Of a stretch of 8,433 nt of DNA, positions 1-8,433 are shown one piece after another. The notes under the pieces are model-generated. The model was not told where the DNA came from, did no database searches, and worked only from the letters and a program-made list of their open reading frames with translations. How positions within the stretch are numbered: position 1 is the first letter of the stretch; every line of letters begins with the position of its first letter. Both the position numbers and the translations under genes were made by a program. The DNA lies in the UHGV virus genome UHGV-1948712; one strand, given 5' to 3'. The stretch is from a virus.

Positions 1-11
1 TTATGCGCACC
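1..11 (-). other. dif-like XerC-binding arm, site truncated by the window edge
   Basis: Window bases 1..11 are TTATGCGCACC, the exact reverse complement of GGTGCGCATAA, which I recall as the XerC arm of E. coli dif (GGTGCGCATAA-TGTATA-TTATGTTAAAT). The central region and XerD arm would lie beyond position 1. Confidence 0.5.
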
Positions 12-5568: not shown

Positions 5569-5883
5569 TTAATGCCAGCTACTGGCGTGCGAAATACGGT
5601 TGTAATCGAAAATAAAACCTTTCTCATAAATCCATAAGGGGATTTCCGCTGGCTTGGCTTCCAGCGTTCTTATTAGCGGAACAACGTTATTAGAGTCTGG
5701 TGAATCACAATAGAAATTAATATCGATACCGAACGAAAGCAATTCTCTTCTATGGCGATAAAAAGTGTTATGAGGTAACATTTCTTTCATGTTAGCCCCT
5801 TGTTTCCAAAGTAAATAAGTTGACTGTATTTTTCTTGGCAGTTTCGTTATTTTTTCATCACTTAAAATAGCATTCTGATTCAT
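5569..5883 (-). CDS. X: gene X protein, in-frame internal start within gene II
   Basis: Internal Met (MNQNAILSD...) aligned with the M13 pX start (MNIYDDSAVLD...), preceded by a GGGAG SD at 5894..5890. 104 aa C-terminal portion of pII. Confidence 0.6.
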   Translation of the reverse strand: MNQNAILSDEKITKLPRKIQSTYLLWKQGANMKEMLPHNTFYRHRRELLSFGIDINFYCDSPDSNNVVPLIRTLEAKPAEIPLWIYEKGFIFDYNRISHASSWH

Positions 5884-6663
5884 TTCTATTCTCCCTACAT
5901 ATTCAGAGAATAATTGACGTGGTGTTTTCATATTCCAGTTAGCGCCAAGCGTTAAATTTAAATCAATAAGCTCAGTTGTTCTTAATGTTAATTCAATACG
6001 TAATTTATCTTTCGTCCAGTCCAGTAACCCGGCTCGTACAAACTCTTCGGCTATCTGGTGCCCTTTTTTACCAGAAACGTGTTCATCATATTTTGAATAA
6101 AATTTCAGACTCCATCGACGGGAGTTTTTACCTAAATAAACTGTACCGCCTTTCCCACATGCGCGACCATGGCGTGTTTTAGCTTTAAATTCGGCGGCAT
6201 AAAGCCATGATCTGACATTTTCCAGCGTAGATAATGAATACATGTAATTAATGTCAATACGTGAAATTTTATACTGACCTGCCATAACGGCTTTATAAGA
6301 CGCTAAATCATGAGGAATATTCAATAAGGATAAAATCCTGGCATAGACCGTCAACATGAGCCCTTGTATATCATCCGACCCAACAACAGAATGCCCCTGC
6401 AGAAACTTGGAAGGATTACCATCAATGTACAAATGTGTCGCTTTACCTTCGCCATTAGATCCTATCGATCGTACTTTCATCGTTGCTTCATGCGAACCGC
6501 GAACAGTCAGTCGCTTAACGGTTTCCCACTCAATTGCACCGTCAGCATCAACGCTGACAACACTCCCCGCCGGAAGCGGTTTGTGTGTGCAAGGGAAAAT
6601 CCCGGTAAGCCAATCGATCACGAATAAATCCTCAAAATTACAAAAATGATGACTTACTAACAC
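5569..6663 (-). CDS. II: gene II protein, rolling-circle replication initiator/nickase
   Basis: 364 aa with similarity to M13 pII (KFLQGHSVVG vs KVLQGHNVFG; NNVVPLIR vs NNVVPLVR). The start is a GTG at 6663..6661 with a stop 3 codons upstream and no obvious SD, so the exact start is uncertain. Confidence 0.85.
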   Translation of the reverse strand: MLVSHHFCNFEDLFVIDWLTGIFPCTHKPLPAGSVVSVDADGAIEWETVKRLTVRGSHEATMKVRSIGSNGEGKATHLYIDGNPSKFLQGHSVVGSDDIQGLMLTVYARILSLLNIPHDLASYKAVMAGQYKISRIDINYMYSLSTLENVRSWLYAAEFKAKTRHGRACGKGGTVYLGKNSRRWSLKFYSKYDEHVSGKKGHQIAEEFVRAGLLDWTKDKLRIELTLRTTELIDLNLTLGANWNMKTPRQLFSEYVGRIEMNQNAILSDEKITKLPRKIQSTYLLWKQGANMKEMLPHNTFYRHRRELLSFGIDINFYCDSPDSNNVVPLIRTLEAKPAEIPLWIYEKGFIFDYNRISHASSWH

Positions 6664-6779
6664 ATGAGTTCAGTAGTTCATTAGTGTTTTAACATTACAC
6701 CAGTGAGCTAGTGAGTTCAAGAGGATTGGATGATATGAGTTCATGAGCATGTATACTCACTTCAAATATTGCATTGAAC
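6664..6779. repeat. cluster of GAGTTCA/GTTCA repeats in the divergent II / accessory-cassette intergenic region
   Basis: GAGTTCA at 6666..6672, 6713..6719 and 6738..6744; GTTCA at 6676..6680; inverted TGAAC at 6775..6779; an ACTCAC inverted copy at 6755..6760. Five pentamer copies in about 115 bp is far more than expected by chance. Confidence 0.5.
6692..6720 (-). promoter_or_regulatory. candidate sigma70 promoter for gene II
   Basis: On the minus strand: -35 TTGAAC (6720..6715), 17-nt spacer, -10 TAATGT (6697..6692), about 30 nt upstream of the gene II start. Sequence-only prediction. Confidence 0.4.
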
Positions 6780-6790
6780 GAGCGTAAAAA

Positions 6791-6973
6791 ATGGCAAAGC
6801 GCACGACTTATAACGTGACGGAAGAAAGAAAAATGAAACTAGAACGACTGGCTATAAATGCCAGTGTAAAACTAGGAAAAACAATTACATGGACAGAGAT
6901 TTTAGGTTATCTGATTGATAACTACTCTAAAGATGCAGCAGAAGATCTCATGTCTGCCAAACAAAAGGATTAA
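6791..6973 (+). CDS. ribbon-helix-helix-like small DNA-binding regulator, 60 aa
   Basis: MAKRTTYNVTEERKMKLERLAINASVKLGKTITWTEILGYLIDNY fits the RHH pattern (basic beta-strand, helix A, G-containing turn, helix B) of CopG/Arc/MetJ-type proteins. Transcribed divergently from gene II. No SD before the ATG, so it may be leaderless or start elsewhere. Confidence 0.5.
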   Translation: MAKRTTYNVTEERKMKLERLAINASVKLGKTITWTEILGYLIDNYSKDAAEDLMSAKQKD

Positions 6974-7026
6974 GTACCACGAATGGTACAAACGTGCAGT
7001 ATTACCTACACTGCACGTTCTTTATT
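6974..7026 (+). terminator. tandem hairpins, the second terminator-like
   Basis: Hairpin 1: GTACCA (6974..6979) / TGGTAC (6984..6989), 4-nt loop. Hairpin 2: AACGTGCAGT (6991..7000) / ACTGCACGTT (7010..7019), 9-nt loop, followed by CTTTATT. Sits just after the RHH gene stop. Confidence 0.5.
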
Positions 7027-7061
7027 GTGCGGATTTTGAACAGCAACAAAGGATCAAAAGG

Positions 7062-7484
7062 ATGAGTAGAAATAACGAAACAAGCGGCGTTGAACTGGTT
7101 GTTGTAGGCGTATTTGCTTTCTGTCTGGCAGTTGTTGCCTGGCTAATGAAAACTTTCGATGTTGAATGGCAAACAGCACTGGAAACTGCGCCTGGCCTGA
7201 TAGTCTGGCTGCTTGTTGTCGGTGCGGGGATCTTTTTCGGGATCAAAATGGAAACTGGCCTTATTCGCTGGGGTGCTCCACTGGCGATCGCCCTTCTGAT
7301 TCCGGTATTCAAGCCAATTCTTAAGGAAGCTGCCGGAGTTCGTGAAACGGGTGGGCTGGTTTTCGATGATATGGTTTCGTGGTATGGAACTGGCTGGGGA
7401 ATGTCTCTGATGTTCTTCGGGATTCTTATTGTCGGATACGGTCTGCTTTATTGGTGGCACAGAAGGAATTCATATTATTGGTGA
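7062..7484 (+). CDS. small integral membrane protein (3-4 predicted TM helices), 140 aa
   Basis: ATG at 7062 with AAGGA SD at 7049..7053 (8-nt spacer). Hydrophobic stretches LVVVGVFAFCLAVVAWL, GLIVWLLVVGAGIFFGI, APLAIALLIPVF and SLMFFGILIVGYGLLYWW. The ORF track extension back to 6915 would cross the hairpins and overlap the RHH gene, so the internal start is preferred. Confidence 0.5.
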   Translation: MSRNNETSGVELVVVGVFAFCLAVVAWLMKTFDVEWQTALETAPGLIVWLLVVGAGIFFGIKMETGLIRWGAPLAIALLIPVFKPILKEAAGVRETGGLVFDDMVSWYGTGWGMSLMFFGILIVGYGLLYWWHRRNSYYW

Positions 7485-7519: not shown

Positions 7520-7556
7520 TTCAGCCCGCGCTAGTTTGATATTGTGAAAGGTGAAG

Positions 7557-8132
7557 ATGAGTATGCAACCGAATGAAGAAATGGACCTCAGGAAATTTTA
7601 CGCAGAGGGAACAGCTGACTACTTAAAAACTAAAATCAAAAAAAGCGAACGACTTTTAAAAATAAACCAATATCTATCATTTGCCCTCCCTGTCCTAGTT
7701 GGAGGATACGCATCGGTTGATCACAGCTCCAAATATTTTGATTTTTTAGTTTGGGGCACAGGGATATTATCAGTGATAGTCTTGCTTTCTAATTTATACA
7801 CGCTGGTCATGAAGACTGATGAAAATTTATCTCGATATCTGGAATCATACTCTTTCAATAAACTCCTAACTGATTTGTATGGCGAACTGTCGAGCATGTT
7901 TAAATCAAAGACAGGCAACCAGCAACCCGCTAACCATTTGTTTTCAGTGATAAAATCAAAAGATGACTTCAATGCCAAGGAAGATGAAAAATATGTTAGC
8001 AATAATGATAAGAAACGGATTATGTTCGACATTCTGGTAAAGAAAAATAAAGAATGCGTACGTTGCAATAAAATACCGACTAAATTTAACAAGCGGAAAG
8101 GTTGCACAAATTGTGGCAATCTCGTGAAATAA
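7557..8132 (+). CDS. 2-TM membrane protein with C-terminal zinc ribbon, 191 aa
   Basis: ATG at 7557 after AAAGGTGA (7546..7553); the ORF track start is a GTG at 7551. Two adjacent hydrophobic helices (YLSFALPVLVGGYASV; FLVWGTGILSVIVLLSNLYTLV), a K/E/N-rich soluble region, then CVRCNK...CTNCGN. Very AT-rich coding sequence. Confidence 0.6.
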   Translation: MSMQPNEEMDLRKFYAEGTADYLKTKIKKSERLLKINQYLSFALPVLVGGYASVDHSSKYFDFLVWGTGILSVIVLLSNLYTLVMKTDENLSRYLESYSFNKLLTDLYGELSSMFKSKTGNQQPANHLFSVIKSKDDFNAKEDEKYVSNNDKKRIMFDILVKKNKECVRCNKIPTKFNKRKGCTNCGNLVK

Positions 8133-8143
8133 AGGAGAAACAA

Positions 8144-8335
8144 ATGAGTTATAAAGTAGATCAAGTCAAAGCTCTCTGGCTTCAATTGACTGATGCGGAG
8201 AAAAAAGAATTTACAACATATCTTTTTAATGGTGAAAAAAAATCCTTACGTGAAGGATTCGAAAGTTTTAGTGTGAATAAAAGCACTACAATGCAATTTG
8301 GTGATGCAAACGTCTGCCCTGCTTGCGGAAAATAA
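8144..8335 (+). CDS. small protein with C-terminal CPAC motif, 63 aa
   Basis: ATG at 8144 preceded by a strong SD AAAGGAG (8131..8137, 6-nt spacer), 11 nt after the stop of the upstream gene, suggesting translational coupling. Ends ...GDANVCPACGK. The ORF track start at 8102 overlaps the upstream gene and lacks an SD. Confidence 0.55.
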   Translation: MSYKVDQVKALWLQLTDAEKKEFTTYLFNGEKKSLREGFESFSVNKSTTMQFGDANVCPACGK

Positions 8336-8376
8336 AATCTAAAAGATTTTGGTTCGCACAATGACGTTATGCTAAA

Positions 8377-8413
8377 GAGGCCGCTGCGGGATTCGATTTT
8401 CGCAGCGGCCTTT
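8377..8413 (+). terminator. rho-independent terminator closing the plus-strand cassette
   Basis: 11-bp GC-rich stem AGGCCGCTGCG (8377..8387) / CGCAGCGGCCT (8400..8410), 12-nt loop, followed by TTTT. Confidence 0.75.
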
Positions 8414-8433
8414 TCAACATAACGAGTCCTACA

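Follow-up and report, generated by a model that had tools for sequence, protein, structure and literature searches.

A predicted four-helix inner-membrane protein traded among dif-integrated filamentous prophages of the Enterobacterales

The virus genome UHGV-1948712, a stretch of 8,433 nucleotides (hereafter, the window), represents a single unit of an inovirus prophage of the UPphi type (IKe-like) that is integrated at dif, and its rightward operon carries a gene for a small membrane protein of 140 residues that has been noticed previously yet remains uncharacterised, being annotated as hypothetical in all homologues; we found no study of it in the literature by accession or by topic. We describe here an orphan family with an unusually mobile distribution: the gene is real and under purifying selection, its product has no detectable homologue of known function, and it is widely traded among filamentous phages, in which it is the commonest occupant of the first cargo slot. 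Nothing in these results contradicts what is expected of prophage accessory genes. As regards function, we tentatively favour, as a possible rather than a probable account, an inner-membrane exclusion or immunity factor that is expressed during lysogeny. The gene is of interest in that dif-integrated filamentous prophages (UPphi, CUS-1 and YpfPhi relatives) are common in uropathogenic and other extraintestinal Escherichia coli, and their accessory genes are the obvious candidates for any effect that these phages have on their hosts. The 140-residue gene is the most conserved of them, and its movement between unrelated backbones and its survival after phage decay suggest that it pays its own way.

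The open reading frame (ORF) extends from TTG 6915 to TGA 7484 (189 codons), and the in-frame ATG at 7062 gives a protein of 140 residues with the hydrophobic segments and the aromatic C-terminus (LLYWWHRRNSYYW; the translation ends ...GYGLLYWWHRRNSYYW) that an earlier note, made from the letters of the window, had described as a small multi-transmembrane protein. This product matches PHROG 4174 (function unknown) from end to end, residues 1-140 aligning with positions 1-140 of the 140-position profile (E = 1.5e-85). A chance reading frame is likewise excluded by the 49 homologues found in a set of 5.8 billion proteins; a profile search of 1.84 billion representative proteins yielded just 41 members. 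When the window gene is paired with each of 15 homologues, the ratio of nonsynonymous to synonymous substitution (dN/dS) falls within 0.06-0.13 in 12 cases; the two copies that diverge most give 0.17 and 0.30, and the UM146 copy, which is almost identical, gives 0. Pairwise codon comparison further revealed that residues 111-140 are nearly frozen.

The start at 7062, which the earlier note had preferred to 6915, is settled as securely as sequence comparison allows, since relatives have stops upstream of this Met and share the Met itself, the PHROG and PGAP starts coincide with it, and a Shine-Dalgarno core lies 8 nucleotides before it. PGAP annotates the identical 423-nucleotide coding sequence in E. 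coli C10, UM146 and UTI89; the PHROG 4174 profile begins at the same Met; and 19 of 19 full-length homologues start there, as MS or MN. UM146 and UTI89 have an in-frame TGA five codons ahead of the ATG, C10 and most IMG/VR relatives have a TAA or TGA 5-6 codons before it, and the upstream frame is open only in the CAGCAACAAAGG variant, to which the window belongs. The block that contains the Shine-Dalgarno core, AAAGGATCAAAAGGATG, is kept in nearly all close homologues. We rejected the long ORF from 6915 on the grounds that it is closed by stops in relatives and overlaps both the gene for a 60-residue protein and the hairpins that follow this gene; no soluble N-terminal domain was found in it. 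Its upstream 47 residues do match PHROG 6875, a match that probably reflects gene calls on the same open variant. A lipoprotein or a signal peptide was also considered and rejected, as the protein lacks a lipobox and its Cys21 is not kept among the homologues.

A four-helix membrane architecture is predicted for the protein. Kyte-Doolittle hydropathy exceeds 1.6 (19-residue windows) at approximately residues 6-34, 39-68, 65-83 (a weak, proline-rich segment) and 111-132. An AlphaFold2 model prepared from 27 diverse homologues, with a mean predicted local distance difference test score (pLDDT) of 86.4 and a predicted template modelling score of 0.73, places four long helices at 6-32, 36-63, 67-90 (kinked at prolines) and 111-139; this model superseded an earlier one from 20 close homologues, of which the pLDDT, 65.6, was too low. 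Over the 27 members the C-terminal tail is basic (45 Lys/Arg versus 14 Asp/Glu), while acidic residues prevail in loops 1 and 3 (24/42 and 46/84), so that the topology prediction puts both termini in the cytoplasm and the two acidic loops, including the conserved 84-110 segment, in the periplasm. Residues conserved family-wide are Pro, Gly, Tyr, Trp and Ala (among them P73, P85, Y108 and G125, and the motifs PxLxYxAG and WYGxxWxQ), and the family alignments contain no conserved charged or catalytic residue: this pattern fits binding or blocking, not catalysis. The model has no significant fold match in PDB or BFVD.

Comparison with known families was equally unproductive. No Pfam or NCBIfam family was found for the protein at E <= 1, and PADLOC defence models returned no family either for it or for a 138-residue relative that is encoded beside a CBASS (cyclic oligonucleotide-based antiphage signalling system) operon. 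A Pfam scan of the 27 members at E <= 10 returned 37 families, the 25 most-matched of which are scattered noise (at most 4 of 27 members each); no T4 Imm, colicin immunity or other exclusion or immunity family is among those 25, and the window protein matched none; no exclusion family of PHROG was matched either. With the 27-sequence family profile, hhalign gave a probability of 0.2% (E = 0.31) for F TraS, and 0.2% and 0.7% for P22 SieA and SieB, respectively. There is no homology to the Ff/IKe core proteins pI-pXI (Pfam, NCBIfam, and tblastn of 50,697 phage records that include IKe), and every core gene of the window has been assigned to a frame on its minus strand. Among holins, LrgA/CidA and two-transmembrane (2TM) effectors the best match was Phage_holin_3_6, at E = 0.33 in 2 of 27 members. 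The holin-like role that had been raised for the protein is thus not borne out: no holin family is significant, the window contains no endolysin, and inoviruses are non-lytic (PMC4266046).

Two reading frames in the literature are probably this gene. UPphi901 has three reverse-oriented ORFs adjoining dif, of which the innermost is kept in 221 of 229 UPphi prophages and the two behind it (h4 and h5) vary, according to Shapiro & Putonti 2020 (PMC7307601). By position and counts the 140-residue gene is probably the UPphi901 'h3': phage group, slot and pattern of retention are the same. On similar grounds it is probably orf1 or orf1a of CUS-1 (Gonzalez et al. 2002, via PMC4266046), and we found it in the CUS-1-type prophage of UTI89. 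Neither h3 nor orf1/orf1a is given a function, or named as a membrane protein, in PMC7307601 or PMC4266046.

Close homologues (73-100% identity) are confined to the Enterobacterales, where they occur in Escherichia, Klebsiella, Salmonella, Citrobacter, Phytobacter, Pantoea, Lonsdalea, Kosakonia, Pectobacterium, Rosenbergiella and Izhakiella, and also in Yersinia enterocolitica; the Mixta copy is more divergent (51-53%). A close-alignment search for related loci returned 6 species genomes. Complete genomes of E. coli contain the gene in 128 cases out of 5,426, almost always on the chromosome and in a median of two copies (up to 16), and the prophages that carry it include those of the extraintestinal pathogenic E. 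coli UTI89, UM146, NC101, ST131 and F11. A 9,565-bp circular E. coli record, NZ_CP128883.1, contains the gene at 98.6% identity; although deposited as a 'plasmid', it probably represents such a phage in its episomal, replicative form.

The slot of the gene is constant in every inovirus locus that could be examined: it comes first after the regulator and ahead of the variable cargo, at the head of the accessory cassette as had been proposed, and on the strand opposite to gII-gV-gVIII-gIII-gVI-gI-gIV. Its phage surroundings are varied, as is evident from a table of module identities that we compiled across 45 loci. The protein is 73-100% identical across UPphi/IKe-like, CUS-1-like and Pantoea-type morphogenesis modules, its carriers span two mutually unalignable gene II types, and at least five different regulators lie upstream of it (R60, HTH148, R150, and Y. 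enterocolitica proteins of 71 and 85 residues). Bearing in mind that the same protein accompanies such unlike modules, we conclude that it acts independently of any particular pIII, pII or repressor, which implies a generic step.

Furthermore, the gene is dispensable to this phage group. Of 30 IMG/VR loci that share the hairpin and the backbone, 8 have an unrelated gene in the slot, and it is because these related backbones do without it that we class the 140-residue gene as a mobile accessory. The tblastn search of phage records did not find it in IKe, I2-2 is counted among the phages that have no copy, and YpfPhi appears to lack it in that no Y. pestis protein is among the homologues; the attL-side ORFs of YpfPhi are unrelated to those of CUS-1 (PMC4266046). 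The GC content of the gene, 48.0% (45% at third codon positions, GC3), is the highest in the window; it lies above that of the core (41%; GC3 25-38%), to which it had been thought similar, and the cargo stands at 35-36%. The accompanying proposal that the gene is an older resident survives in part: it is shared much more broadly than the cargo that follows it, yet in eight of the 30 related backbones a different gene occupies the slot.

The gene also outlasts the phage. Lonsdalea and Mixta have intact copies of 136-140 residues at the chromosome terminus or dif region with no called phage genes adjoining, and dN/dS relative to the window gene is 0.12 for Lonsdalea and 0.30 for Mixta. In Lonsdalea (locus L008, 9051-10620) and in Mixta (locus L003) the intact gene belongs to a mini-remnant that further comprises decayed left-end sequence, the tail of a repressor gene, hairpins and a dif-like site, but neither replication nor virion genes; in Lonsdalea the hairpins include the one we name hairpin 2 (see below). 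Defective alleles were recorded as well, in the form of several frameshifts at homopolymer runs and one common deletion that takes out the regulatory region and the first 34 codons; by cluster sizes, ~86% of database sequences are intact.

Distant relatives (25-63% identity) are all in mobile or conflict loci. One lies beside a VirB-type type IV secretion system (T4SS), and the DNA 3' of this gene resembles the Xer-site and terminator region of the phage, which suggests that the copy was captured from a phage. Others are found within a Vibrio conjugative element; in the traD-traI interval of an F-type Vibrio plasmid, on the opposite strand; in an IncN-like leading region that also contains ssb, ardR and ccgAII; adjoining genes for a relaxase, ArdC, a primase and a coupling protein; in Rahnella, between the end of a type VI secretion system (T6SS) cluster and an F-type traC; upstream of type II CBASS, both on chromosomes (Enterobacter) and on an IncHI2 plasmid; in Tn7-like cargo; and in an unrelated inovirus with a Rep_trans initiator. 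The CBASS-side relative of 138 residues forms a fixed trio with two orphan genes (108 and 161 residues) directly before the type II CBASS operon; in one genome an insertion sequence element separates the trio from CBASS. Pfam and PADLOC scans of the neighbours of the distant relatives gave nothing useful.

Operon position, module independence, dispensability, survival after phage decay and the conflict contexts of the relatives lead us to suggest that the protein may be a protective factor in the lysogen. The gene would be transcribed together with the prophage repressor and away from the replication and virion genes, and from this coupling we infer that the protein is made in the quiescent lysogen. 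Placed in the inner membrane, it may block, by binding rather than catalysis, a membrane step that an invader has to use. The most likely target would be the Tol-dependent insertion and single-stranded DNA entry of other filamentous phages; this target is the most economical, given that such phages are all rivals for one dif site irrespective of the receptor or repressor that they use. Less probably, the protein would act against conjugative DNA or against a toxin that inserts into the membrane.

Several known systems offer partial likenesses to an exclusion factor of this kind. Immunity proteins of the colicin A type have four membrane helices with their termini inside, and intercept a membrane-inserting invader in the inner membrane. 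In its predicted helix count and topology the 140-residue protein resembles the immunity proteins to pore-forming, Tol-dependent colicins, and one relative is found where a T6SS cluster ends, a common site for immunity genes; yet no Pfam colicin-immunity family is matched, and no toxin gene adjoins the phage copy. F TraS and SXT/R391 Eex are likewise small, hydrophobic, polytopic inner-membrane proteins made in element-bearing cells; their elements enter as single-stranded DNA by way of a pilus or T4SS, and distant relatives of the 140-residue protein are in or beside transfer clusters. The TraS slot itself (traG-traS-traT), however, is held by no relative, and the phage copy follows the repressor. 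P22 SieA, T4 Imm and Pf4 PfsE are likewise phage-dispensable prophage proteins of the inner membrane, and they block incoming phage. PfsE is a dedicated inovirus exclusion protein (PMC8764522); in contrast to the predicted four helices of the 140-residue protein, it is described as a tiny peptide whose target is the type IV pilus.

Some considerations weigh against exclusion. In Ff-type phages superinfection exclusion is already provided by pIII, so that the need for a second factor is reduced. Frameshift, truncation or deletion affects roughly 14% of database alleles. The conjugative link of the distant members amounts to about ten loci and could reflect nothing more than their carriage on mobile DNA of any sort. 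In addition, carrier E. coli have multiple copies (median two, up to 16), and heterogeneous tandem prophage arrays are reported in PMC7307601: taken together, these two points mean that any exclusion of related phages would be at most partial.

Other explanations account for parts of the same evidence. The protein could be a host-physiology or virulence 'moron' that alters the lysogen (for example in its tolerance of envelope stress, small-molecule flux or fitness in animals) with no action against other elements, which we consider unlikely. CUS-1 and YpfPhi do confer a modest fitness gain in animals (PMC4266046), but YpfPhi has its in vivo effect while appearing to lack the gene. Likewise, the presence of the gene in the prophages of extraintestinal pathogens (UTI89, UM146, NC101, ST131 and F11) has to be set against its presence in the plant-associated or environmental hosts Pantoea, Lonsdalea, Rosenbergiella, Izhakiella and Pectobacterium; the same protein in such different hosts argues against a role specific to animals. 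Retention of the lone copies in Lonsdalea and Mixta, and a GC3 that, among the genes of the phage, comes closest to the host value, agree with a benefit to the host, whereas no transporter or channel family is matched, and the distant members lie in conflict, not metabolic, loci.

An accessory function in the life cycle of the phage, such as damping or localising pI/pIV assembly, buffering secretin stress, or stabilising dif integration via the FtsK membrane domain, is in our estimate rather improbable. Such a function would sit well with the strong conservation of the gene, with its tight link to the regulatory region of dif-integrating inoviruses in several lineages (the distant Rep_trans one included), and with its position next to hairpin 2, a backbone cis element that tracks gene II type. 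Nevertheless, the gene is missing from the 8 of 30 otherwise equivalent phages and from IKe, I2-2 and YpfPhi; it is transcribed opposite to the production genes and persists where no phage genes remain; and it has relatives on plasmids, in a Tn7-like element and on chromosomal islands that contain no inovirus. We give very little credence to a membrane-damaging effector, either holin-like or an abortive-infection toxin, that would, once triggered, depolarise the inner membrane or render it permeable, alone or with the downstream cargo. Its sequence is kept while the adjoining cargo changes entirely, which indicates that the protein is not the dedicated partner of one system, even though that cargo looks defence-like and some relatives adjoin defence systems (CBASS, and a ThiF/E1-like set). 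A small four-helix membrane protein would suit this proposal in its general form, but no holin, LrgA/CidA or 2TM-effector family rises above noise, there is no endolysin, and the phage is non-lytic. Disrupted alleles are not rare, as would be expected of a costly protein; against this, ~86% of alleles are intact, and the apparent constitutive expression with the repressor would not be tolerable for a toxin that has no antidote. Some of the probability we assign to none of these accounts.

We also entertain, as distinctly unlikely, an extension of the exclusion proposal in which the family would form a new class of entry-exclusion proteins, broad in range and orphan in both sequence and fold, common to filamentous phages and conjugative elements. 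It would act at the single step that both kinds of element share, when pilus-delivered single-stranded DNA and its pilot proteins cross the inner membrane; if true, this would explain both the trading among inoviruses with unrelated modules and the relatives in transfer regions. Were the 140-residue protein to block filamentous phages, plasmids or membrane toxins, it would represent a new exclusion family and, furthermore, would offer access to the inner-membrane step of filamentous-phage infection, which is poorly understood. If it is not an exclusion protein, it adds to the small membrane 'morons' whose role is unknown.

The region between the 60- and 140-residue genes contains two hairpins (Table 1), and positions 6960-7075 fold better than their own shuffles (z = -3.26). 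Hairpin 1 has a second allele, GTCTCA-GGAA-TGAGAC, that differs by two compensatory pair changes; each allele tracks repressor type. Hairpin 2 was found in 30 IMG/VR contigs, in 22 of which it is followed by the 140-residue gene and in 8 by unrelated genes of 46 to 370 residues. It occurs only with the CUS/UPphi-type gene II (85-100% identity), irrespective of which repressor, morphogenesis module or downstream gene goes with it; phages that combine the 140-residue gene with the unrelated Y. enterocolitica-type gene II do not have it. In view of this tracking, and of the unrelated genes that it also precedes, we regard hairpin 2 on comparative grounds as an element of the phage backbone and not as evidence specific to the 140-residue gene; the hairpins that had been cited in support of the 7062 start are real, but neither speaks specifically for this gene. 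Hairpin 2 may be a partial terminator or, as another candidate, a cis site or origin cognate to gII. A likeness at 7014-7030 to the f1 plus-strand nick site (CACGTTCTTTA in common) was rejected: it was matched by 16 of 200 shuffles, the motif is on the strand opposite gene II, and relatives that retain hairpin 2 do not keep it. Comparison with the IKe origin gave no useful similarity. We found no promoter-like site between the hairpins and the ATG of the 140-residue gene, which is therefore probably read through from the promoter-like site upstream of the 60-residue gene.

The window as a whole is assigned to a single dif-integrated unit since it starts with the reverse complement of the XerC arm and ends past a dif-like site and a GC-rich hairpin; the site at its right end is dif-like as judged against the E. 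coli dif sequence. The minus strand encodes the full inovirus set of genes II, V, VIII, III, VI, I (Zot-like) and IV (secretin), plus 2 small ORFs. Gene III contains GGGES repeats, phage IKe gene IV is 79% identical to that of the window at the DNA level, and the entire right-hand region matches a tandem prophage of E. coli C10 at 99.1%. In its layout, GGGES repeats and kinship to IKe, the window fits the UPphi phages as characterised by Shapiro and Putonti (PMC7307601). The rightward plus-strand operon diverges from gene II and consists, in order, of the genes for the 60-residue, 140-residue, TIGR04402 and 63-residue proteins. By analogy with the position of rstR in CTXphi, the 60-residue protein is presumed to be a repressor or immunity regulator.

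Table 1. Coordinates of the 140-residue gene and of other features in the window
Feature	Position	Strand	Basis
Second dif-like arm, inverted, across window ends (TTATGCGCACC)	1-11		reverse complement of dif XerC arm
Promoter-like site ATGATA-16-TATACT, upstream of 60-residue gene; overlaps TGAGTTCA repeats	6730-6757	+	
60-residue protein, PHROG 2503; first gene of rightward operon, divergent from gene II	6791-6973	+	PHROG match, gene calls
Upstream in-frame extension, non-coding; overlaps both hairpins and, out of frame, the end of the 60-residue gene	6915-7061	+	
Hairpin 1, GTACCA-CGAA-TGGTAC, directly past stop of 60-residue gene	6974-6989	+	
Hairpin 2, 10-bp perfect stem AACGTGCAGT/ACTGCACGTT, 9-nucleotide loop, then T-rich tract	6991-7019	+	
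Shine-Dalgarno core AGGA, 8 nucleotides before ATG	7050-7053	+	
140-residue protein, predicted four-helix inner-membrane, PHROG 4174; TGA stop 7482-7484	7062-7484	+	profile, homologues, model, PGAP
Cargo gene 1, TIGR04402 'mobilome CxxCx(11)CxxC' protein; PGAP start 7557	7551-8132	+	
Cargo gene 2, 63-residue hypothetical (CxxC) protein ending CPACGK	8144-8335	+	
dif-like Xer site GGTTCGCACAATGACGTTATGCTAAAG, end of rightward operon	8351-8377	+	sequence comparison with dif
GC-rich hairpin GGCCGCTGCG...CGCAGCGGCC followed by TTTT	8379-8414	+	read directly from sequence

Three exact copies of TGAGTTCA (with a 15-nucleotide repeat at 6712 and 6736) are present in 6665-6743, where gene II and the 60-residue gene diverge; they overlap the promoter-like site and are candidate operators for the 60-residue protein. 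Gene II (5569-6663) begins mechanically at GTG 6663, which gives 364 residues; PGAP and a Pantoea homologue favour a start near 6621, 14 codons later (350 residues).

The slot between the 140-residue gene and dif is a hotspot for cargo. In the window it holds the two small genes listed in Table 1, the first of which encodes a TIGR04402 protein that has weak SLATT/DUF4231-like matches; elsewhere it holds, among others, ECs_2282 zinc-binding, STM4504/CBY_0614, PD-(D/E)XK, DpnII-MboI with DUF6953, or again TIGR04402 genes.

The window is cut exactly at the prophage boundary, and two inverted dif-like sites lie across the unit junction, like the described attP of YpfPhi and CTXphi. The GC-rich hairpin at the right end is a likely terminator of the rightward operon. 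The last ~85 nucleotides (8349-8433), which comprise the dif-like site and this hairpin, match 440 plasmid records, mostly at 90-95% identity, and 393 of these are conjugative; this suggests a common Xer-site module, or phage remnants on plasmids. A plasmid link of the 140-residue gene itself was considered and rejected: the plasmid matches of the wider region stem from these ~85 nucleotides, not from the gene. At the left end, an ORF on the plus strand (3-164, MRTNGKDGG...) is joined in frame to the 140-residue gene in the deletion derivatives P0002 and P0019; the latter has 82 member sequences, and the two mark recurrent deletions of the regulatory region.

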